Shown: positions 3,589 through 51,657 of the stretch, one piece after another | Layout: each line of letters opens with the position of its first letter | Numbering within the stretch: the stretch's first letter is position 1 | Assembly: GCA_964604905.1 (NCBI GenBank) | Contig: CAZSCC010000370.1 | Span: 3,676-67,675 of the forward strand | Length of the DNA stretch: 64,000 nt | Source of the DNA: an uncultured Planctomycetales bacterium | Lineage (GTDB): Bacteria; Planctomycetota; MHYJ01; JACPRB01 | Direction: 5' to 3' | Notes under the pieces: model-generated | The model's input: only the letters and a program-made list of their open reading frames with translations | Database searches by the model: none | What the model was told of the DNA's origin: nothing | Made by a program: the position numbers and the translations under genes

Positions 3589-4770
3589 ATGCTCAGGCTG
3601 CTCCCCCTGCTGCTCGCCCTCGGCTGCGCCGCGCCCGCCCGCCTGTCGCAAGAGAAGCTCCACGCGATCGATCCGGTCCTGAACGAGATGATCGCGAAGA
3701 AGAAGATCGCCGGCGCGATCGTCCTGGTGGCGAAGGACGGCGACGTCGTCTTCGAGCAATGCTACGGGATGATGGACCTCGAGGCCGCGACGCCCATGCG
3801 CCCCGGCGCGATCGTCCGGATCTACTCGATGACGAAGGCCATCGTCACCGCCGCGGCCCTCGTGCTCGTCGACGAGGGGAAGCTGGGCCTCGACGATCCC
3901 GTGGCGAGATCGATCCCCGAGTTCAAGGACCTGAAGGTGCAGACGCCTGAGGGCCTGAGGAAGCCGTCGCGGCCGCCGACCGTGAAGGACCTGATGCTCC
4001 ATACCGCGGGGTTCACCTACGGAGGCGGTCCGAGGCTGCCGGACAAGCTCTACCAGGAGAAGAAGCCGCTGGAGTCGAAGGACCTGGACGAGATGGCCGC
4101 CAAGCTGGCGACGATCCCGCTCGCGTTCGATCCGGGCAAGGACTGGCAGTATTCCCTCTCGATCGACGTCCTGGGGCTCGTCATCGAACGGGTGTCGGGG
4201 ATGAAGCTCGACCGGTTCCTCGAGGAGCGGATCTTCAAGCCCTTGGGGATGACCGACACGGGATTCCACGTGCCCTCGGAGAAGGCCGACCGGTTCGCGG
4301 CGAACTACGAGAGGCAGGGAGAGGGCTTGAAGCGGATCGACACCCCGTCGAAGTACCTGAAGGCTCCGACGTTCCTCTCGGGCGGCGGCGGGCTGGTCAG
4401 CACCGCGCGGGATTACATGCGGTTCCTCCTGATGGTCGAGCGCGGGGGAGAGGGGCTCCTGAAGCCCGGGACGGTCCGCCTCATGACGACCGACCAGCTG
4501 CCGCGCGAGGCGTTCCCGATCTACTTCGGCAAGCAAGTCCGCCACGGGACCGGCTTCGGCCTGGGCTTCTCGGTCCGCACGGCCGCGACCGAGGGGGACC
4601 CGCCGGCGCGGGTCGGCGAGTACGGCTGGGGAGGGGCGGCTTCGACCCATTACTGGACGAGCCCGGCGGACCGGCTGATCGTCGTGACCCTCGAGCAGAC
4701 GATGCCCTACACGTCCGACACGGAGGTTGCCGTCAAGGGACTGATTTACGACGCCCTCTCCAAGCCCTGA
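3589..4770 (+). CDS. serine hydrolase, beta-lactamase/PBP4-like family
   Basis: ATG 3589 lies in frame within the read-through track ORF 2512..4770. Signal peptide MLRLLPLLLALGCA and the S-x-x-K motif 'YSMTKA'. Length and overall pattern fit class-C beta-lactamase-like esterases. Confidence 0.8.
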   Translation: MLRLLPLLLALGCAAPARLSQEKLHAIDPVLNEMIAKKKIAGAIVLVAKDGDVVFEQCYGMMDLEAATPMRPGAIVRIYSMTKAIVTAAALVLVDEGKLGLDDPVARSIPEFKDLKVQTPEGLRKPSRPPTVKDLMLHTAGFTYGGGPRLPDKLYQEKKPLESKDLDEMAAKLATIPLAFDPGKDWQYSLSIDVLGLVIERVSGMKLDRFLEERIFKPLGMTDTGFHVPSEKADRFAANYERQGEGLKRIDTPSKYLKAPTFLSGGGGLVSTARDYMRFLLMVERGGEGLLKPGTVRLMTTDQLPREAFPIYFGKQVRHGTGFGLGFSVRTAATEGDPPARVGEYGWGGAASTHYWTSPADRLIVVTLEQTMPYTSDTEVAVKGLIYDALSKP

Positions 4771-17035: not shown

Positions 17036-17066
17036 CGTAACAGAACAAACGGTTTGTTTTGTTACG
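17036..17066. repeat. AT-rich 31-bp palindromic element, copy 1 (1 arm mismatch)
   Basis: cgtaacaGaacaaac-g-gtttgttttgttacg, between convergent genes. The TAA stop of the minus-strand gene (17062-17064) lies in its right arm. Confidence 0.9.
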
Positions 17067-17958
17067 ATCCCACCCGGATGCGGTAGAGGCCGAACTTGGG
17101 GCCGGCGCCGGCCGTGATGTAGAGCGTCGCCCCGTCGGCGCCGAAGCAGCAGTTGGTGGGGTCGCCCGGAGTCGGGATGAACCCCTTCGGCTCCCCGCCG
17201 GCCGGGCTGAACACATACACGCCCCCTCTGGCGCCCGTCCCCGCGGTGGCGTAGATGTTTCCATCCCGACCCAGCGTCATCCCGTCGATCCCCCGGCCCG
17301 TCTTGAAGTCGTACAGGATCCGCTTCTCGCCCAGCGACCCGTCCGCCTGCACCCGGAAGGCGAGGAGGTGAAGCACCCCTTTCGGGTTGTTGTCCGCGAC
17401 GTAGACCGTCTTCCCGTCGGGCGTGACGATGATCCCATTGGGCTTCTGCACGTCGCGCGTCGCGAGCGTCACCTTGCCGTCCGGCTCGACGAGGAAGACC
17501 CCCTCGAAGTCGATGTCCCGAGGATCGTTGCCGACGTAACGCGGATCGGTGAAGTACACCTGGCCCCGGGGCCCGATCGCCAGGTCGTTGGGGCTGTTGA
17601 ACCGCTTGCCGTCCCAGCGGTCGGCGAGCGTGCGGACCTTCCCGTCGGGCTCGGTGATCGAGATCCGACGGTTGCCGCCGGTATTTCCGCCCTCGCAGGC
17701 GACGAGGCGCCCCCGCGCGTCGAACTTGAGGCCGTTGGAGCGGCCGCTCGGATCCCGGTAGACCGCGACCTGCTTCGTCTTCGGATCGAAGCGCAGCATC
17801 CGGTTCCCGATGTCGCTGAAGACGATCGAGCCGTCGGGCGCCAGGGCCGGCCCCTCGGTGAACTCGCCGTCCGCCCAGAGGACCTCCAGGGAGCTTCCGC
17901 CCTCCGGCGCGGAGGCGCACCCCAGGGCCAGCACGATCCACGCGAGGTTCAGTCTCAT
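17062..17958 (-). CDS. SMP-30/gluconolactonase/LRE-like beta-propeller protein, secreted
   Basis: About 298 aa (ATG 17958; GTG 17961 also possible). 'EGPALAPDGSIVFSDI', 'NGLKFDARGRLVACE', 'PNDLAIGPRGQVYFTD' and 'PNGIIVTPDGKTVYVAD'. Confidence 0.8.
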   Translation of the reverse strand: MRLNLAWIVLALGCASAPEGGSSLEVLWADGEFTEGPALAPDGSIVFSDIGNRMLRFDPKTKQVAVYRDPSGRSNGLKFDARGRLVACEGGNTGGNRRISITEPDGKVRTLADRWDGKRFNSPNDLAIGPRGQVYFTDPRYVGNDPRDIDFEGVFLVEPDGKVTLATRDVQKPNGIIVTPDGKTVYVADNNPKGVLHLLAFRVQADGSLGEKRILYDFKTGRGIDGMTLGRDGNIYATAGTGARGGVYVFSPAGGEPKGFIPTPGDPTNCCFGADGATLYITAGAGPKFGLYRIRVGS

Positions 17959-30339: not shown

Positions 30340-31736
30340 CGATGGATCCCCTGATCGGACGGCGTGGGTTCCTCCTGGGGAGCGGTCTGAGCCTGGGCGC
30401 GCTGGCGCTCGAGGCCTTCGCGCAGCAGGAGGGGCGGTCGCGCGCGCCCCATTTCGCGCCGAAGGCCCGCCGCGTGATCTACCTCTGCCAGTCGGGCGCG
30501 CCCTCGCAGATGGACCTCTTCGACTACAAGCCACAGCTCGAGAAGTTCCGCGCTCAGGACCTGCCCGACTCGGTGCGGAAGGGTCAGCGGCTGACGGGGA
30601 TGACGGCGACGCAGGATCGCTTCCCGATCGCGCCGTCGATCTTCCGCTTCGCGCGGCGCGGGGAGAGCGGCGCGTGGGTGAGCGACCTTCTGCCGGAGAC
30701 GGCGGCGATCGCGGACGACCTCTGCTTCGTGAAGTCGATGTTCACGGAGGCGATCAACCACGACCCGGCGATCACGTTCCTCCAGAGCGGCAGCCAACTC
30801 GCGGGCCGTCCCAGCATGGGAGCGTGGGTCTCCTACGGGCTTGGCCGGCTGAACGAGGACCTGCCGAGCTTCGTGGCGATGACGTCGGGGGAGGGGGACC
30901 AGCCGCTCTACGACCGCCTCTGGGGGAGCGGCTTCCTGCCGAGCGAGTACCAGGGGGTCAAGTTCGGGCGGACGGGCGACCCGGTGCTCTACCTGTCGGA
31001 CCCTCCCGGGATCGACCGGGCGATGCGGCGCCGGATGCTGGACGATCTGGCGGCGATGAACGAGCTCCGGCTGCGCGAGCAGGGGGACCCCGAGACGGCG
31101 GCCCGGATCGCGCAGTACGAGATGGCCTTCCGGATGCAGGCGTCGGTCCCCGAGCTGGTCGACGTCTCGCGCGAGCCCGAGTCGATCCGCGAGCTGTACG
31201 GCCCCGACTGCATGAAGCGCGGGACCTTCGCGGCGAACTGCCTGTTGGCGCGCCGCCTGGCGGAGCGGGGGGTGCGGTTCATCCAACTCTATCACCGCGG
31301 CTGGGACCAGCACACCAACCTGCCGCGAGACCTCCGGCGGCAGTGCAGGGACACGGACCGCCCGGCGGCGGCGCTGGTTCGGGACCTCAAGCAGCGGGGG
31401 ATGCTCGACGACACGCTGGTGATCTGGGGGGGCGAGTTCGGCCGCACGGTCTACTGCCAGGGGCGCCTCACGGAGGACGACTACGGCCGCGACCATCATC
31501 CGCGCTGCTTCACGGTCTGGATGGCGGGGGGCGGGGTCAAGCCGGGGCTCACCTGGGGCGAGACGGACGACCACTCCTACAACATCGTCCGGGACCCCGT
31601 CCACGTGCATGACCTGAACGCCACGGTCCTGCACTGCCTGGGCCTCGACCACACCCGGCTGACCTTCCAGTACCAGGGCCGCCACCACCGCCTGACCGAC
31701 GTGCACGGCCACGTGGTGAAGGGCCTGCTCGCGTAA
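30336..31736 (+). CDS. DUF1501 (sulfatase-like fold) protein
   Basis: 466 aa. '[18 protein letters not shown]', 'GRDHHPRCF' and '[14 protein letters not shown]'. GTGA start/stop overlap with the preceding gene. Its TAA stop (31734-31736) lies inside the palindromic element. Confidence 0.85.
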
Positions 31737-31762
31737 CAAAACAAACCGTTTGTTTTGTTACG
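31732..31762. repeat. AT-rich 31-bp palindromic element, copy 3 (perfect)
   Basis: cgtaacaaaacaaac-c-gtttgttttgttacg: perfect 15-bp arms around a single central base. Confidence 0.95.
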
Positions 31763-31786
31763 CGGGAGCTCTATCATCGCCTGCGC

Positions 31787-33071: not shown

Positions 33072-33102
33072 CGTAACAAAACAAACGGTTTGTTTTGTTA
33101 CG
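33072..33102. repeat. AT-rich 31-bp palindromic element, copy 4 (perfect; exact reverse complement of copy 3)
   Basis: cgtaacaaaacaaac-g-gtttgttttgttacg, between convergent gene ends. Confidence 0.95.
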
Positions 33103-33109
33103 CAGCTCG

Positions 33110-44998: not shown

Positions 44999-45137
44999 CC
45001 CGCGGACGGGGAGGAACGGGCATGAGCGGGCTCACGGCGGCGGTCTTCCTCTTGGCGAGTCTCTCCGTTTCCGCCCGGCACGCGCCGCAGGAACGGCCGC
45101 GCCACAAGACCCCCTTCCGCGTCATCAACCTCCACGC

Positions 45138-45506
45138 CTAGACTTTCCCCTCTACAAAGGACTTGAGCCGTACGGCGTCATCCACGCCCTGGAGCGCACG
45201 CGCACCATCGGTGAGCAGGGGCTTTCGGAGCAGGTTGGGGATCTTCGCGAGGATGTCGAGGAGTTGCTCGTCGGGGAGCGTCTTTCCGGCGAGGTTCTGC
45301 TGGTACTCGGGGGAGTCCGTCCTGGGGGTCACCATTTCGCGGGCGCCTCCGGGCGTCCCTTTGGCGATCTGCCCCAACACCTCCCGGCTCGGCGGTTGGG
45401 TCAGGATGTCGAGCACGTCGACTTCGATCTTGTTCTGCGAAAGCCACGCCTTCGCGTTCTCGCAGGCGCCTCAACCCTTCTTGTAGTAAAGCGTCAGTCT
45501 GGCCAT
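45138..45506 (-). CDS. ArsC/Spx/YffB-family thiol oxidoreductase with in-frame TGA at the catalytic Cys position (candidate selenoprotein, U-G-A-C motif)
   Basis: ATG 45506 with GGAGGG 6 nt upstream. MARLTLYYKKG-[TGA 45473-45471]-GACENAKAWLSQNKIEVDVLDILTQPPSRE... is in frame with track ORF 45138..45416 (GTG). The full length parallels ArsC (IYHNPACGTSRN...ENPPSRDEL...INRPIV). Confidence 0.6.
45435..45465 (-). promoter_or_regulatory. SECIS-like mRNA hairpin downstream of the in-frame UGA
   Basis: The mRNA from +6 to +36 after UGA reads CUGCGAGA-ACGC-GAAG-GCGU-GGC-UUUCGCAG. It forms an 8-bp lower stem (one G-U), a 3-nt bulge, a 4-bp upper stem and a GAAG apical loop starting 18 nt after the UGA. 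Confidence 0.45.
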
Positions 45507-45525
45507 GTCCGACCCTCCATTCCAC

Positions 45526-45553
45526 ATTGTAGGCGGGACCGTCGCATCGGCAA
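45526..45553 (-). promoter_or_regulatory. sigma70-like promoter candidate for the ArsC-like gene
   Basis: Minus strand TTGCCG (45553-45548), 16-nt spacer, TACAAT (45531-45526), about 20 nt upstream of the ATG. Confidence 0.4.
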
Positions 45554-45570
45554 GCTATTGCCTCGCAGCC

Positions 45571-45737
45571 CTAGGGAGCGATCTCCTTGAGGAAGGTGAC
45601 AGACTCGCGGATCACGGAGTCCACGATCTGCATATGACCCTTGTCCGTGTAGTGCAGGAACTTGTGCGGAGCGCCAGCCTTCCGGAGGGTCTCTGCCATG
45701 TCCACCGCCTGCTTGATGGGAACCGACTTGTCGTCGT
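45571..45737 (-). pseudogene. 3' remnant of an alpha/beta-hydrolase (dienelactone-hydrolase / S9 peptidase-like) gene
   Basis: The minus frame reads ...SHDDKSVPIKQAVDMAETLRKAGAPHKFLHYTDKGHMQIVDSVIRESVTFLKEIAP* (stop 45573-45571), which holds the catalytic Asp/His region only. The upstream part is replaced by the 72-bp repeat. Confidence 0.5.
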
Positions 45738-45809
45738 GGGAGTAAGACAATCAAAAGGGTATCCGAGGAGGGAGGGAAAGGGAAGAGGAGGGGTGATGAA
45801 ACAGGATGG
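45738..45809 (+). repeat. 72-bp direct repeat, copy 1
   Basis: gggagtaagacaatcaaaagggtatccgagg[a]gggagggaaagggaagaggaggggtgatgaaacaggatgg. It is 71/72 identical to 47238-47309 and contains a G3-N1-G3-N3-G3-N7-G4 tract (45770-45793). The last bases supply the ATG of ORF 45806. Confidence 0.95.
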
Positions 45810-46060
45810 GGGAAGTGACGGTGCGGCTCGAGGACCCCGCGAAGACCGAGGCCTTCCTGCTCTCGATCGCGCGTTACGTCTTCGATCTCGGCGACGTCAT
45901 GCCCGACGGCCGCGTGGTGAAGGGCCAGACCGGCGACCGCTGGATCATCCAGCGCACCCGGGCGTCCCACGTCCCCGCCCGGGAGAACCTCTTCCTGAAA
46001 TCCGCGAGCGACGTCCCGCCAACCGGCAACACAGTCATCACCCGCGCTCCGCTGGCCTGA
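45806..46060 (+). CDS. hypothetical protein (84 aa)
   Basis: The ATG is embedded in the end of repeat copy 1. Strong G/C third-position bias. MGEVTVRLEDPAKTEAFLLSIARYVFDLGDV... No family recognised. Confidence 0.45.
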   Translation: MGEVTVRLEDPAKTEAFLLSIARYVFDLGDVMPDGRVVKGQTGDRWIIQRTRASHVPARENLFLKSASDVPPTGNTVITRAPLA

Positions 46061-46078
46061 AGTTGATCAACCCTTGGG

Positions 46079-46879
46079 TCAGGGCGGCAGGTCGCCGGGC
46101 GGCGTGCGCGGGGCTTCGGGCAGGGTGATCGACCCCTTCAGCGGCGTCCGGGTCTTCAAGTCGCCGCCCGTCGCCAGCGTGAAGCCGTTCTCGACGGCCG
46201 CCGCGTCGATGGTGTCCAGCTTGGTGGCATCGGCCGTGAAGGTGGCCTTCCCGAGGGAGACCCAGGCCTCCTTCGTCGTGCGCACCCAGCCGTCGCTGAA
46301 CCGCGCCCGGCGCCGCTCGCCGACGCTCTTGCCGTCGCGCCGGAAATCCTCCACGAACGAGTAGTAGCCTTTCAGCGGCGAGCCCTTCGTCAGGGCGCGG
46401 AACGTCGCCAGGTGCACCCAGGCCTTCGTGTCGTTCCGGTAGAAGTATCCGGAGTAGGCGGTCTTCTCGCCCTCGACGGCCGCCCGCACCAGGAAGCGGC
46501 ACGGCTCGCCGATCTTCCACGCATAGGGGAACTTGCACTGCGCGCCGGTGCCCTCGCCCCCGAAGCGTCCGATCTTGACGTCGGCGTGCTGGTGCAGCAC
46601 CTCGACGCGCCGGTCGGCGGGCACGGACTTGGGGTCGTCGCCCTTCGTCGGATCCCAGACCGAGAACAGCACGATCTTGTCGCCCTTCGAGAGCTCCTGC
46701 ATGCCGAAGTAGCCGGTGTTCCATCCACAGGCCATGAAGTAGCTGCCGGGCGTCGATTCTTCGACGGACAGCGTGTTGTGGAACTCGGTCCCCTCTGCCG
46801 CGCTCCACCACAGGTGGACCGAGCGGGCGGCTTTCGGGGCGACGTCCTGCAGGGAAGCGAGCAGCAGCAGCGTGATCAT
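46079..46879 (-). CDS. DUF3472-like secreted protein
   Basis: 266 aa. 'YFMACGWNTGYFGMQE', 'IVLFSVWDP', 'FGGEGTGAQC' and 'YYSFVEDF' resemble the DUF3472/DUF5077 family as I remember it. Confidence 0.55.
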   Translation of the reverse strand: MITLLLLASLQDVAPKAARSVHLWWSAAEGTEFHNTLSVEESTPGSYFMACGWNTGYFGMQELSKGDKIVLFSVWDPTKGDDPKSVPADRRVEVLHQHADVKIGRFGGEGTGAQCKFPYAWKIGEPCRFLVRAAVEGEKTAYSGYFYRNDTKAWVHLATFRALTKGSPLKGYYSFVEDFRRDGKSVGERRRARFSDGWVRTTKEAWVSLGKATFTADATKLDTIDAAAVENGFTLATGGDLKTRTPLKGSITLPEAPRTPPGDLPP

Positions 46880-46886
46880 CGCGGGA

Positions 46887-47237
46887 TTATACGGGTCGCG
46901 CCGCCCGCCGTTGGATCGCCGCGGCCAGTCGCTCGGCGCTGCCCGGCTCGAGGTTCAGGAACAGCGACGGCTCCGTGGCTTCGAACTCCAGGAGCCGGGG
47001 CCCCGGCGCCAGATCCACCCGGGCGTACAGCAGCGGCGGCCCCGCCGCCGCGATGACCCGCTCCGCGAGCGCCCGCTCCGCCGGCGAGGGCTCTCGCCGC
47101 GAGAGGTCCTCCTTCACGAAGAGTCCGCCCACCAGCTCCGCGCCAGGCCGGAGCATCGGACCCTTGCGGATCGCGTGGCTTTAGCGGCTCTCCAGGAAGA
47201 CCAGCGCCGTCTCGCCGTCCCGGTCCGCGTCCTTCAG
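46887..47237 (-). pseudogene. 3' remnant of an ATP-grasp-type gene with an internal TAA
   Basis: The minus frame reads ...DADRDGETALVFLESR-[TAA 47183-47181]-SHAIRKGPMLRPGAELVGG...LLYARVDLAPGPRLLEFEATEPSLFL... Homologues as I recall them have F/Y-SHA-RK at that point. The 5' part is cut off exactly at repeat copy 2. Confidence 0.45.
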
Positions 47238-47309
47238 GGGAGTAAGACAATCAAAAGGGTATCCGAGGGGGGAGGGAAAGGGAAGAGGAGGGGTGATGAA
47301 ACAGGATGG
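47238..47309 (+). repeat. 72-bp direct repeat, copy 2
   Basis: Same sequence as 45738-45809 with a single A/G difference (45769 a, 47269 g). Offset is exactly 1500 bp. Confidence 0.95.
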
Positions 47310-47355
47310 AGGGGGAGTTTTCAAAGCCCCGCGACCGGAGGGAGCGATTTAAAAA

Positions 47356-47718
47356 GTGGGAGAGAGAGGGGCGTGGAAAGAGGGGCCGCAGGAAAGGGCC
47401 CGCTACGCCCCTTCACGCTGGACCCTTTGCGCGAAAGAGGCCTGCCCGAAAGGGCTCCTGATCCTGGAGGTCTGGCGCGCGGACGACGGGACGCTCGGGT
47501 GTCGAGCCAACGGGAAGGAGATCTCCACGCCCGGCGTGAAGCTGCCCGGGACCTTCGCGCTCACCGGGTTGGGCTTCGACGGCGAGGGTTCGTCGCAGTG
47601 GGACGATTACTGGATGGAATTCGTGATCTGCGACCGCCTGCCGGCCGCCGGGAAGCGCGACGCGTGCGGGGACTCCCTGCGGACCCAGTGGAAGAGCGAA
47701 GCCGGATCCAACCCGTGA
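47356..47718 (+). CDS. hypothetical protein or gene remnant (beta-sandwich/LamG-like C-terminal piece?)
   Basis: GTG start only. The first ~30 codons have poor codon bias, but from 'LLILEVWRADDGTLGCRANGKE...WDDYWMEFVI' the third positions look coding. A C-rich inverted partial copy of the repeat core follows. Confidence 0.3.
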   Translation: MGERGAWKEGPQERARYAPSRWTLCAKEACPKGLLILEVWRADDGTLGCRANGKEISTPGVKLPGTFALTGLGFDGEGSSQWDDYWMEFVICDRLPAAGKRDACGDSLRTQWKSEAGSNP

Positions 47719-47765
47719 GAACAGGACCCCCTCCCCTTTTCCCTCCCCGTTCCACGGGCATGATG

Positions 47766-47771
47766 TATAAT
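47766..47771 (+). promoter_or_regulatory. isolated perfect TATAAT upstream of gene 47801
   Basis: tataat sits 29 nt before ATG 47801, inside a short AT-rich island (atgtataattaatgcat) in otherwise GC-rich DNA. No convincing -35. Confidence 0.25.
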
Positions 47772-47800
47772 TAATGCATCTCGAGGGCAGGGACTGAGGA

Positions 47801-48835
47801 ATGGGGCGACCGATCGTTTACTGCGCGGAGTGCGGCGGCGCGCTCCGCGACGAGGATTTCCAGCGGGGCGGCGCGAGCCTTTCGGAGAACCAGCCTTATT
47901 GCTCGCGGTGCCGGCCTCCCACGCCCGCTCCGCGAGGCGCCTCTCCTTCCCGGCGCTCCTCCCGTCCCATCGCGGTCGTCGCGGGGCCGCGGCCCGCCAC
48001 CACCCGCCGCACCACGGCACCCCGCGCCAAGCTGCCGGTCGCGGCCTTCGCGGCGGCCGGAGGCGCCGCGCTCCTCCTCGTGATCGTGGTCGCCGCGGTC
48101 TTGTCGCGCTCCCAGCCGAAGACCGAGGTCGCCGTGCGGCCGCCGCCGGTCGAGACACCTCCCGCGCCCCTGCCCGCGCCGGCCCCGCGCCGGGCGGCCC
48201 CGGCGCGCGTGGAAACGCCTCCTCCGCAGGTCGAGGTCCCGTCGCCCCCCGCCGACCCGAACGTCGCCCTCGACCGCTGGCTCGAGGATATCCGCAAGCT
48301 CCGGGAGCAGGACCCCGGCTTTGGGAAGGCAGTCGAGGTGCGCTCCATGCTCCGTCAGGCGGTCGCGATTGCCCCGGCCTCCCGCCGCCCGCAGGTCGAG
48401 CTGATCGCCGCCGAGTACGAGAATGCCGCGACCTCGAAAGCACCCCCGAAGGAGCCGGCGACTGCCGTCCCCGGCTTCATCGCCGGCTTCACCCTCATCA
48501 ACGCCGACACGGCCAAACCGGTCCCGGGCTTCGATCCCGTTCCGGAAGGCGCCACGATCGACCTATCGAAGATCGGGACCCGTAAGCTCAACCTCCGCGC
48601 CAACGTCGCCGGCGGCAAGGTCGGCTGCATCCGCTTCTCGGTGAACGACCAGCCGACCGTCGTGGAGTGGACCGCGCCCCACGCGGTCTTCGGGGACCAG
48701 CATGGGAAGTACAAGCCGTGGACGCCGCCGTTGGGCCTCCATTGCGTGCGCGCCGACGTGTTTTCGGTAGGCGATCCCAAGGGCAATCCGGTTTCGAACA
48801 AGACCCTGCGCTTCACCGTCGTCGACCCCCGCTGA
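47801..48835 (+). CDS. zinc-ribbon / single-TM / Pro-rich linker / C-terminal beta-sandwich domain protein
   Basis: 344 aa. 'YCAECGG...YCSRCR', a TM (AAFAAAGGAALLLVIVVAAVL), a PAPxP linker and a C-terminal 'FTLINADT...IDLSK...LNLRANV...IRFSVN' carbohydrate-binding-like fold pattern. Confidence 0.6.
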   Translation: MGRPIVYCAECGGALRDEDFQRGGASLSENQPYCSRCRPPTPAPRGASPSRRSSRPIAVVAGPRPATTRRTTAPRAKLPVAAFAAAGGAALLLVIVVAAVLSRSQPKTEVAVRPPPVETPPAPLPAPAPRRAAPARVETPPPQVEVPSPPADPNVALDRWLEDIRKLREQDPGFGKAVEVRSMLRQAVAIAPASRRPQVELIAAEYENAATSKAPPKEPATAVPGFIAGFTLINADTAKPVPGFDPVPEGATIDLSKIGTRKLNLRANVAGGKVGCIRFSVNDQPTVVEWTAPHAVFGDQHGKYKPWTPPLGLHCVRADVFSVGDPKGNPVSNKTLRFTVVDPR

Positions 48836-48902: not shown

Positions 48903-49295
48903 ATGAAAACCCTGATGCTCGCGCTCGCGGCCCTCGCGGGGACGTCGCAGGACCGCTCGGACGTCCCGCTCGAGGTCGAGCCCTCCGACCCGGCCGTCGC
49001 GAAGATCGTGATCCTGGCCGGCTCGTTCAGCAAGTGCAGGGGCGAGCACGAGTACTTCGCGGGATCGGCGCTCCTGGCGAAGCTGCTCCGACAGATGCCG
49101 GGCTTCTTTCCCGTTCTTGCCGCCGACGGTTGGCCGAAGAACGAGCGGATCCTCGAGGGCGCGAAGACCGTCGTCTTCTACATGGATGGACGCCGGGGGC
49201 AAGCAGCCCTTCCTCACGGCCGAGCGGATGGACCGGATCGAGAGGCTCGCCGCGCGCGGCGCCGGGATCGTCCACCTTCACCAGGTCATCGAGAT
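48903..49295 (+). pseudogene. ThuA-like (glutamine-amidotransferase-like fold) gene remnant: frameshifted and 3'-truncated
   Basis: Signal + 'KIVILAGSFSKCRGEHEYFAGSALLAKLL...AKTVVFYMDG', then the sensible reading jumps frame at ~49190 to 'GGKQPFLTAERMDRIERLAARGAGIVHLHQVIE'. Homology-like sequence and high GC end near 49295. The end coordinate is approximate. Confidence 0.45.
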
Positions 49296-49434
49296 TCTCG
49301 CGGCCCGGGCTCTGACCCGTCAGATGATCGTTGTAGTCCGCCGCAACGATCCCGTCGAAACTAGTAAGGCCGCCGCTTTCGATGGCTGCGAAGAAGCGGC
49401 GAACTAGAGCCTAATTCTCTTCAATGGAAGACAT
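49296..49434 (-). pseudogene. SnoaL-like ester cyclase gene remnant: nonsense codon plus 3' truncation
   Basis: GGAGGA-aac-ATG 49434, then MSSIEEN-[TAG 49413-49411]-ALVRRFFAAIESGGLTSFDGIVAADYNDHLTGQSPGRE. The common family opening is '..EENKALVRRF', so the TAG replaces the Lys codon. It runs into the ThuA-like remnant. The start coordinate is approximate. Confidence 0.5.
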
Positions 49435-51340: not shown

Positions 51341-51474
51341 CGGCCGCGTTCGGCAGCCTCAAGAAGCGGGAAGCTTTCATCAGGGGGGATCTGCTCCTGT
51401 GAGGATAAGGCATTTAAAGGGGTAGGGAAGAGGGGAAGGATAGTCAGGGGCGGAGTGGTCAGGTTCGAAAGCAA

Positions 51475-51495
51475 CCCGCGACCGCTGGTCGCGGG
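51475..51495 (-). terminator. GC-rich hairpin, possible intrinsic terminator downstream of tkt
   Basis: cccgcgacc-gct-ggtcgcggg (9-bp stem, 3-nt loop). On the minus strand it is followed by UUGCUUUCG. It lies ~165 nt past the tkt stop, so the assignment is tentative. Confidence 0.35.
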
Positions 51496-51657
51496 ACAAA
51501 AACGAGGGCGAATTCAGATCACGGGTTCTTTATTGAGACCACGCCGCGCAATGTAACACGACGATTCGTAACATGGGGTAACGCGAGAGCCCCCGGCTGC
51601 CGTGCATGAATAGGACACGGTAAAACGACCGGCGGGGGCCCTCGAGGGAGAGGCGCG

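Follow-up and report, generated by a model that had tools for sequence, protein, structure and literature searches.

An IS91-family, ISCR-clade insertion sequence as the probable source of two direct repeats at the edges of broken genes in a planctomycete genome

Two nearly identical direct repeats in a 64,000-nt stretch of planctomycete DNA are very probably the outermost stretch of one end, the one on the oriIS side, of a rolling-circle insertion sequence (IS) belonging to the ISCR clade of the IS91 family. The stretch, hereafter the window, corresponds to positions 3676–67675 of contig C370 in a 7.0-Mb metagenome-assembled genome (MAG) of 750 contigs, with a completeness of 94.7% and a contamination of 6.2%. 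In the IS91 family, oriIS lies downstream of the transposase gene tnpA and terIS upstream of it (PMC13181058). One of the two repeats (copy 2) is a complete end standing alone, and the other (copy 1) is a stub of about 70 nt left from a sister copy of almost the same sequence. For the cell, the repeats have no demonstrated function, and the open reading frames (ORFs) that begin inside them on the plus strand have accidental starts. They mark ordinary transposon-driven scrambling of the genome, and are neither a promoter nor a new kind of cassette site. A first-pass annotation of the window had proposed a mobile or recombining unit of several possible kinds. Among these, the IS end stands as the mark of the edges at which genes were cut, whereas the MITE (a miniature transposable element with inverted repeats), the att- or attC-like site, and the promoter or 5′ untranslated region (5′-UTR) module do not.

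Re-alignment confirmed two direct repeats of 72 bp with 71 identical positions, a single A/G difference at 45769/47269, and a start-to-start distance of 1500 nt. Extended slightly, the segments 45738–45812 and 47238–47312 agree at 73 of 75 positions. The first 31 nt of the repeat occur in the window only at these two sites, where no chance match is expected, and comparison of the flanking sequences outside the repeat detected no relationship, as annotated previously. The spacing of exactly 1500 bp had been suspected to be a coincidence; we treat it as one without detectable meaning, and the length itself was reproduced by an independent assembly. Both internal junctions are confirmed by the Logan contig from SRR9952630 (1489 bp, assembled with k=31 independently of the MAG), which matches 45780–47268 at 100%. 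This k=31 contig breaks inside both repeat copies, which makes phasing of the copies impossible from it. A weaker inverted partial copy once noted at 47727–47749 seems to be just a polypyrimidine match of about 21 nt, with a profile E-value of 1.4 and a pairwise score of 26 against a shuffle maximum of 25.

Copy 1 (45742–45812; the IS strand is the minus strand) consists of the terminal box GTAAGACAATCAAAAGGGTATCC and a polypurine tract. Its inner breakpoint lies at 45810–45813, its profile match spans hmm positions 3–72, and it is 97% identical to copy 2 and 90% identical to a transposase-linked copy on contig C247. Copy 2 (47242–47420, minus strand) is a complete 179-nt unit with a terminal box, a polypurine tract, the conserved box TTTCAAAGCCCCGCGACCGGAGGGAGCG, and a GC hairpin (47367–47374 paired with 47405–47412). 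It also carries the end of the transposase gene, namely its final five codons with the stop (47404–47421, minus strand). Neither window copy is accompanied by a transposase gene.

Sensitive searches of the whole assembly identified the repeat as the outer portion of a family of about 180 nt that has about 12 copies, complete or partial, in the MAG, so that the repeat is not unique to the two window sites. The copies cluster on C247, C482, and the window contig. Copy 2 matches C247:2889–3067 at 93% over 179 nt, while its identity to the copies on C482, C609, C684, and C294 is 72–77%; partial copies were found on C247, C482, C37, C448, and C84. Four modules follow one another in the unit, namely the terminal box GTAGGACAATCAAAAGGGTATCC, a polypurine tract that varies, a second box TTTCAAAGCCCCGCGACCGGAGGGAGCGGTT that is nearly invariant, and a GC-rich hairpin ending in ...CCCCTTCACGCT; copy 1 keeps the first two modules only. 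The inner boundary ...CACGCT is common to copy 2, both copies on C482 (C482a and C482b), and the copies on C294, C684, C609, and C37. The majority of the family copies have no transposase, and some of them sit between convergent genes. The copies C609, C294, and C482a are located in intergenic DNA and may be simple insertions.

Among 40 related genomes, six of them from the same genus, the repeat family was not found, which fits a recently active, lineage-specific IS. Two scans of the genome contig collections with the repeat returned a single chance match only. Of the 41 loci retrieved by a metagenome scan, just two (L047 and L053) are relevant; an unrelated AT-rich family accounts for 36 and single chance matches for three. 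The partial solo copy L047 is nearest to the transposase-linked L053 (95%), just as the solo copy 2 is nearest to the transposase-linked copy on C247, so that solo ends have been generated more than once. The AT-rich family (L023–L063; about 36 loci in a few Joint Genome Institute metagenomes) carries the 20-mer GGACAATCAAAAGGGTACCC internally, and we attribute this sharing to chance amplified by the copy number of that family. A known structured RNA was also considered and rejected, as no Rfam covariance model matched the region 45000–48500 at E≤1. The fold of the whole unit was no better than that of shuffled sequences (z = −0.8 to −1.6).

The identity of the unit is revealed by its position on C247, where it lies directly 3′ of an ORF matching Y2_Tnp (PF04986, E=5.7e-23) and Zn_Tnp_IS91 (PF14319, E=1.9e-4; 21.8 bits, under the cut-off of 26.3). 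The transposase frame ends with ...DFETDQREGA*, and the inner end of the unit (CAGCGTGAAGGGGCGTAG), read as its reverse complement, encodes the final five codons and the stop. Since the unit of about 180 nt starts within the final codons of the transposase and runs to the terminus of the element, we interpret the repeat as the oriIS-side end of a rolling-circle IS. The reading frame on C247 is broken by one TGA and one frameshift. An identical arrangement was found in L053, an independent metagenome contig (Ga0247727), in which the C-terminus of the transposase is in one frame and the gene is 5′-truncated. Two diverged IS91-type copies in the same MAG (C686 and C392, about 48% amino-acid identity) have, after the stop codon, a palindromic box, CTTTGA, a polypyrimidine tract, and the terminus.

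The best NCBIfam match of the transposase is ISCR clade Ia (E=1.6e-55), with a score of 188.6 bits far under the model cut-off of 925, so that it is a distant relative and no named ISCR element; the classical IS91 model gave E=9e-9. An HUH motif and an LCRYxxRP motif, which we take to be the catalytic tyrosine motif of the family, are kept across 14 relatives. The latter motif holds one Tyr, and the position four residues before it is occupied by Gln, Lys, Arg, or His. Two catalytic tyrosines are typical of IS91 proper and one of the ISCR branch.

At its left, terIS-type end, the C247 element has an unrelated palindromic box GTGTTACCCCATGTTACGAATCGTAACAC followed by a sigma-54-like sequence TGGCACGCCGTTTGC. 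No inverted repeat connects the two ends of the unit; with unlike palindromes on its two sides, the element has two different ends and no inverted repeats. Subterminal palindromes are present in the oriIS region, namely the conserved CCGC..CTCCGG..GCGG box and the GC hairpin described above. In the relative G015 the end architecture is not conserved, and the end is only about 80 nt long. A −24/−12 sigma-54-type box occurs upstream of the IS91/ISCR-type transposase gene both in the MAG (TGGCACGCCGTTTGC at G000 C247, around 1290–1390) and at the left ends of L066 and L079 in G015 (GGCACGGGACTTGC). The two elements sharing this box have just 56% amino-acid identity, and its presence suggests that expression of the transposase might be sigma-54-dependent. 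Another locus in the MAG (G000 C684:14823–16927) has the parts of one element in the expected order, with a left-end box and a 47-nt piece of the transposase followed by a long unrelated ORF and then a complete oriIS-side unit. It is apparently an IS derivative with a replaced interior.

The outer terminus is sharp on the IS strand (...GGATACCCTTTTGATTGTCCTAC). Read on the transposase strand, termini end in ...GATTGTCCTAC and are followed by NYYC in 14 of 15 cases, where chance would give 0.085 per site (binomial P ~1e-14); the variants seen are ACCC, ACTC, TCCC, GCCC, ATTC, and ATCC. Both window copies are flanked by GGGA (TCCC on the IS strand, minus), at 45738–45741 for copy 1 and 47238–47241 for copy 2. 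The former is host-derived, from Ser/His codons of a hydrolase gene, and the latter from a Pro codon of an ATP-grasp gene. Because the two tetranucleotides are codons of different host genes, they represent a selected site and not part of a copied block. The tetranucleotides known beside oriIS are CTTG in IS91, GTTC in IS801 and IS1294, and GTCC in IS1294b (PMC13181058), and the comparison shows NYYC as the putative analogue of the GTTC/GTCC/CTTG targets of IS91, IS801, and IS1294. No target-site duplication was seen in the four solo units examined, in which the tetranucleotides on the two sides differ. NYYC also precedes the inner boundary in seven of eight solo copies, that of copy 2 being encoded by the flanking gene, and the transposase-linked copy has GATC at this position. 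Direct ends that are nearest neighbours share an identical flanking tetranucleotide in all four pairs (TCCC in the window, ACTC on C247, ACCC on C482, and ACCC on L053). The pattern was recognised post hoc in four pairs only (permutation p=0.0003), and it speaks for some enzyme-driven process acting locally.

All four edges of the two window copies adjoin 5′-truncated genes that point away from the IS fragment. To the left of copy 1 lies the 3′ remnant of an alpha/beta-hydrolase gene (Peptidase_S9/DLH-like; 45571–45741, minus strand), comprising the last 56 or so codons, with about 225 codons of the 5′ part missing at the IS terminus. The remnant matches residues ~226–281 of a full-length 281-aa paralogue on C194 (86.5% nucleotide identity). 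To the left of copy 2, an ATP-grasp (D-cycloserine-synthetase-like) gene is likewise reduced to about 115 codons at its 3′ end (46887–47237, minus strand), with about 170 codons missing at the terminus, and aligns to residues 169–271 of a 286-aa paralogue on C708. The extra TAA noted in this tail is in-frame, at 47181–47183. The truncation of both minus-strand genes at the edge of the repeat, read correctly by the first-pass annotation, is thus documented by their full-length paralogues. A hunt for the missing 5′ halves of the two genes, for which a place elsewhere had been envisaged, found neither anywhere in the 7.0-Mb assembly.

On the right-hand sides, the proposed feeding of plus-strand ORFs by the two copies had to be abandoned. 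The ATG at 45806 indeed lies inside the repeat, and it occurs in the IS sequence by chance: ORF 45806–46060 ("ORF84") consists of the last 80 or so codons of a DUF4261-family gene (45813–46060, plus strand). The orthologue in a same-genus genome (G006) has about 290 residues and is convergent with a DUF3472 gene as in the window, and a paralogue on C641 is also much longer than the window remnant. Beyond copy 2, ORF 47356–47718 ("ORF120") has its annotated GTG start at 47356 within the IS sequence. It comprises at least 19 codons of IS sequence followed by the last 93 or so codons of a gene for a 258-aa protein whose function is unknown (47422–47718, plus strand). This remnant is 89% identical to residues 165–257 of P0001 (258 aa), and most of 50 other homologues align to it near their own C-terminal ends. 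Given that all four edges abut truncated genes, both plus-strand ORFs are remnants with accidental starts in IS sequence. The scans detected no sigma-70-like promoter in either copy on either strand and no terminator in the repeats; planctomycete promoters are poorly defined, which makes the sigma-70-like model used for the promoter scan weak evidence in either direction. The sole intact gene between the copies encodes a DUF3472 protein of 266 residues (46079–46879, minus strand; PF11958 over the full length, E=2.6e-82), with orthologues of 79–84% identity in G003 and G006. As the repeat is not confined to two sites and the remnants have longer homologues that do not start there, the earlier idea of a mobile-element end survives.

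The solo units of about 180 nt could be explained if rolling-circle transposition begins at oriIS and stops early at a recurrent internal site. This stop site, located where the transposase ORF ends, would consist of the GC hairpin together with CACGCT. As a precedent, the miniature right-end fragments of IS801 that arise by one-ended transposition come closest (Bardaji et al. 2011, PMC3189936). In the native host of IS801, 26% of transposition events give right-end fragments of 229, 360, or 679 nt that are bounded by the consensus tetranucleotide; rarer events carry fragments of adjacent genes, and most genomic IS801 fragments were judged to be products of reorganisations (PMC3189936). The genes around the window copies were probably broken through IS-mediated rearrangement by one of two routes. 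Dispersed copies could have recombined with deletion of the intervening DNA. Alternatively, a one-ended transposition event could have carried the DUF4261 remnant, DUF3472, and the ATP-grasp remnant as a 1500-nt unit (45742–47241) into the nick site of a resident copy 2.

Several observations weigh against the interpretation as solo IS ends. The window copies are not simple insertions: their flanks are 5′-truncated fragments of unrelated genes and are not contiguous, so that at least one further, unobserved event per copy is needed. The window lacks a transposase gene of this subfamily, and the only full-length linked copy in the MAG, on C247, is defective through its TGA stop and frameshift, leaving current activity unproven. 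No empty site for the solo units on C609 and C294 was found in the same-genus genomes, whose intergenic DNA has diverged too far and in which the genes flanking the units are non-syntenic. The internal terminator is suggested by the inner boundary that about eight copies share. The parallel with IS801 is inexact in that the bounding tetranucleotide of IS801 lies inside the IS, whereas the inner-side NYYC is derived from the flank here. Finally, the linkage of the contig across the two copies depends on the assembler and on a single nucleotide polymorphism (SNP).

This last dependence raises the prospect that the contig was mis-joined through the 72-bp repeat, the true arrangement being a hydrolase remnant beside a full end and a separate or circular segment of 1.5 kb. 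The MAG consists of 750 contigs with 6% contamination, and the independent k=31 assembly breaks exactly at both copies and cannot phase them. However, any assembler k above ~45, or a read of 100–150 nt, would link each flank uniquely through the SNP in the middle of the repeat, and all four junction sequences occur in the independent contig or the MAG. An artefact is therefore very unlikely. It seems equally improbable that the unit is an independent small repeat, similar to repetitive extragenic palindromic (REP) sequences or MITEs, that merely happens to lie downstream of the C247 transposase gene. The solo copies all share the inner boundary, as a discrete element would, and most copies have no transposase. 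Yet the unit contains the last five codons and stop of the transposase, two transposase-linked instances have ends that co-vary with those of the nearest solo copies, and the diverged IS91-type copies show matching architecture at the matching place. Its terminus behaves like an IS91 oriIS, without terminal inverted repeats or target duplication, and on these two absences a classical MITE is ruled out as well. Least probable is a portable promoter/5′-UTR serving the plus-strand ORFs at 45806 and 47356. It would account for the ATG that follows a purine-rich stretch within the repeat and for the open frames past both copies. Both ORFs, however, are 5′-truncated pieces of longer genes, and the purine-rich stretch is the polypurine tract of the IS, present in all copies regardless of their neighbours and even between convergent genes; neither a promoter-like site nor an Rfam match was found.

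Two further proposals would extend the solo-end interpretation rather than replace the identity of the element. As a variant of the best explanation, the segment 45742–47241 might be one rolling-circle transposition unit, produced by replication from the oriIS of the stub through the DUF4261 remnant and DUF3472, ending at GGGA in the ATP-grasp gene, with insertion at the nick site of copy 2. The two direct oriIS ends would then be initiation and termination sites able to mobilise DUF3472. We regard this gene capture as a tentative possibility. It would be in line with the tetranucleotides shared by neighbouring direct ends (4/4 pairs, p=0.0003), those of the window being host codons of different genes and hence selected and not copied. 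IS801 and IS91 are known to capture adjacent DNA up to a consensus tetranucleotide (PMC3189936, PMC13181058), and the ATP-grasp 5′ half is missing from the assembly, as expected if the captured part alone moved. On the other hand, gene capture would leave unexplained how the stub came to be joined to the DUF4261 remnant and why the remnants of the hydrolase and of the 258-aa protein are paired around copy 2, and the 1500-nt unit has no second copy in the MAG or the collections searched. The identical tetranucleotides, a post hoc pattern in four pairs, could also reflect a target preference shared by sister copies. Somewhat more doubtful is the broader proposal that the direct oriIS pairs with the same tetranucleotide (in the window and on C247, C482, and L053) function as rolling-circle cassettes. 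With a nick by the transposase at one oriIS junction and termination at the following one, the DNA between them, here DUF3472 and the gene fragments, would move as a unit.

The end might, as an added effect and not as an alternative identity, act as an outward promoter module like that of ISCR1, the oriIS end reading the minus strand across the terminus. Copy 2 would then read into the ATP-grasp remnant and DUF3472, and copy 1 into the hydrolase remnant and an ArsC-like gene. The 232-bp oriIS region of ISCR1 has two weak outward promoters that raise flanking expression 13- to 15-fold (PMC6218425), the transposase described here belongs to the ISCR clade, and DUF3472 is intact despite the broken gene upstream. 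We nevertheless consider it quite unlikely, considering that neither copy has a sigma-70-like site on either strand, with the caveat on planctomycete promoters given above, and that the ArsC-like gene has a candidate promoter of its own at 45553–45526.

The solo-end interpretation could be placed more precisely by comparison with characterised systems. Like the IS801 fragments, the units here lack a transposase and are of fixed length, reaching inward from the oriIS terminus to recurrent inner end points. They also share the association with a consensus tetranucleotide, the co-existence of full elements, the broken or chimeric genes alongside, and the apparent capture of adjacent gene fragments. 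The IS801 fragments were recovered in trapping experiments as simple insertions; the units here, by contrast, are known from sequence, and those in the window are not simple insertions. The tetranucleotide constitutes the first 4 nt of an IS801 fragment, in contrast to the inner NYYC here, which belongs to the flank; further differences are the planctomycete host and the ISCR-clade transposase. With ISCR elements the family shares the best curated match (ISCR clade Ia), apparently the single Tyr of the LCRY motif, a non-coding oriIS region of ~180–230 bp downstream of the transposase gene, an end that adjoins truncated genes, and repeated direct copies with foreign DNA between them. It differs by a distinct terIS-type left end, as ISCR1 is usually described without a recognisable one, and by having no resistance genes, no integron context, and no outward promoters detected. 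As of 2018, no ISCR transposition had been shown experimentally (PMC6218425).

Distinct ori and ter ends, no inverted repeats, no target duplication, a tetranucleotide at oriIS, and subterminal palindromes are all features of IS91 and IS1294 (PMC13181058). The classical IS91 model nevertheless matches only weakly (E=9e-9), and the tetranucleotide is relaxed, NYYC being mostly NCCC or NCTC instead of GTTC or CTTG. Whereas 82 bp are sufficient for IS91, the end here is much longer and contains a long polypyrimidine tract. Non-autonomous Helitrons are also rolling-circle elements with short derivatives that capture fragments of host genes and retain the termini as well as a hairpin close to one of the ends. 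They are, however, eukaryotic, use a Rep/helicase protein, and have the termini 5′-TC...CTRR-3′.

Integron cassettes resemble the window in that direct repeats bracket a gene-sized segment and the MAG encodes an integron integrase, but here the repeats enclose pieces of genes on both strands instead of a promoterless cassette, no attC-type imperfect palindrome extends across the unit, the contig with the integrase is unlinked, and the unit is physically within an IS. An attC site or cassette was rejected as a candidate: no palindrome spans the unit, and the only intI-like gene above the cut-off lies on the unlinked contig C673, which lacks the repeat. This integron-integrase-type gene (C673:1074–1784) scores above the TIGR02249 cut-off with 292.8 bits. 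The 1.8-kb contig ends within the gene, and no cassette array was seen on it.

Further along the window, a third, diverged IS91-type relic spans 51395–51640 on the minus strand, in the same orientation as both copies. It has oriIS-like modules at 51395–51502 and a terIS palindrome box ~45 nt further, and is a transposase-less mini-element with both ends. The segment 51562–51582 is an exact 21-nt match to the left end (terIS box) of the C247 element. A search of the window for the terIS box allowing up to 3 mismatches found none, and the diverged box at 51562–51582 was recognised later by eye. In comparison with three same-genus genomes, synteny extends through tkt as far as its 3′ end, where this relic lies; the gene following tkt in G004 sits on a different contig in the MAG. 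Gene order around DUF3472, tkt, and the ArsC-like gene shows a locus rearranged in comparison with the relatives, and the ancestral arrangement was not recovered. The G+C content falls to 58–62% between 49.2 and 51.6 kb. Also in this region, a ThuA-like gene (48903–49407, plus strand) is split near 49190 by an apparent frameshift into two overlapping ORFs that jointly resemble one G003 protein. It appears to be another pseudogene of the decay island.

With these assignments, an odd repeat becomes an annotated mobile-element end, a gene-decay island of 6 kb is explained as IS-driven, and two likely mis-annotations are corrected, the 84-aa and 120-aa "genes" being fragments. The analysis adds to the Planctomycetota an ISCR-clade, IS91-family element with a defined oriIS terminus, a relaxed NYYC target, and recurrent solo ends of about 180 nt. 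The finding opens no new category. The neighbouring ends with identical tetranucleotides provide a small data set on initiation, termination, and DNA capture in rolling-circle elements that are poorly characterised. If the pairs of ends were indeed working cassettes, they would be natural sequence-level evidence for gene capture and shuffling in the ISCR clade, and would be more interesting than solo ends.

Two further features of the window deserve mention. The ArsC/Spx/glutaredoxin-like gene (45138–45506, minus strand) contains an in-frame TGA at 45471–45473, at the position of the first Cys of the redox motif (G-U-G-A-C). Since the TGA and the protein on both sides of it are kept in the orthologue of the same-genus genome G002 (83% nucleotide identity) and in a paralogue on C128, the gene is a good candidate for a selenoprotein of the UxxC type. 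A palindromic repeat of ~32 nt (…AACAAAACAAACCGTCTGTTTTGCTAC…) occurs in the window at ~17036–17069, 31732–31763, and 33072–33103. It is present on at least 15 contigs, with several copies on the window contig, and is REP-like and unrelated to the IS end.

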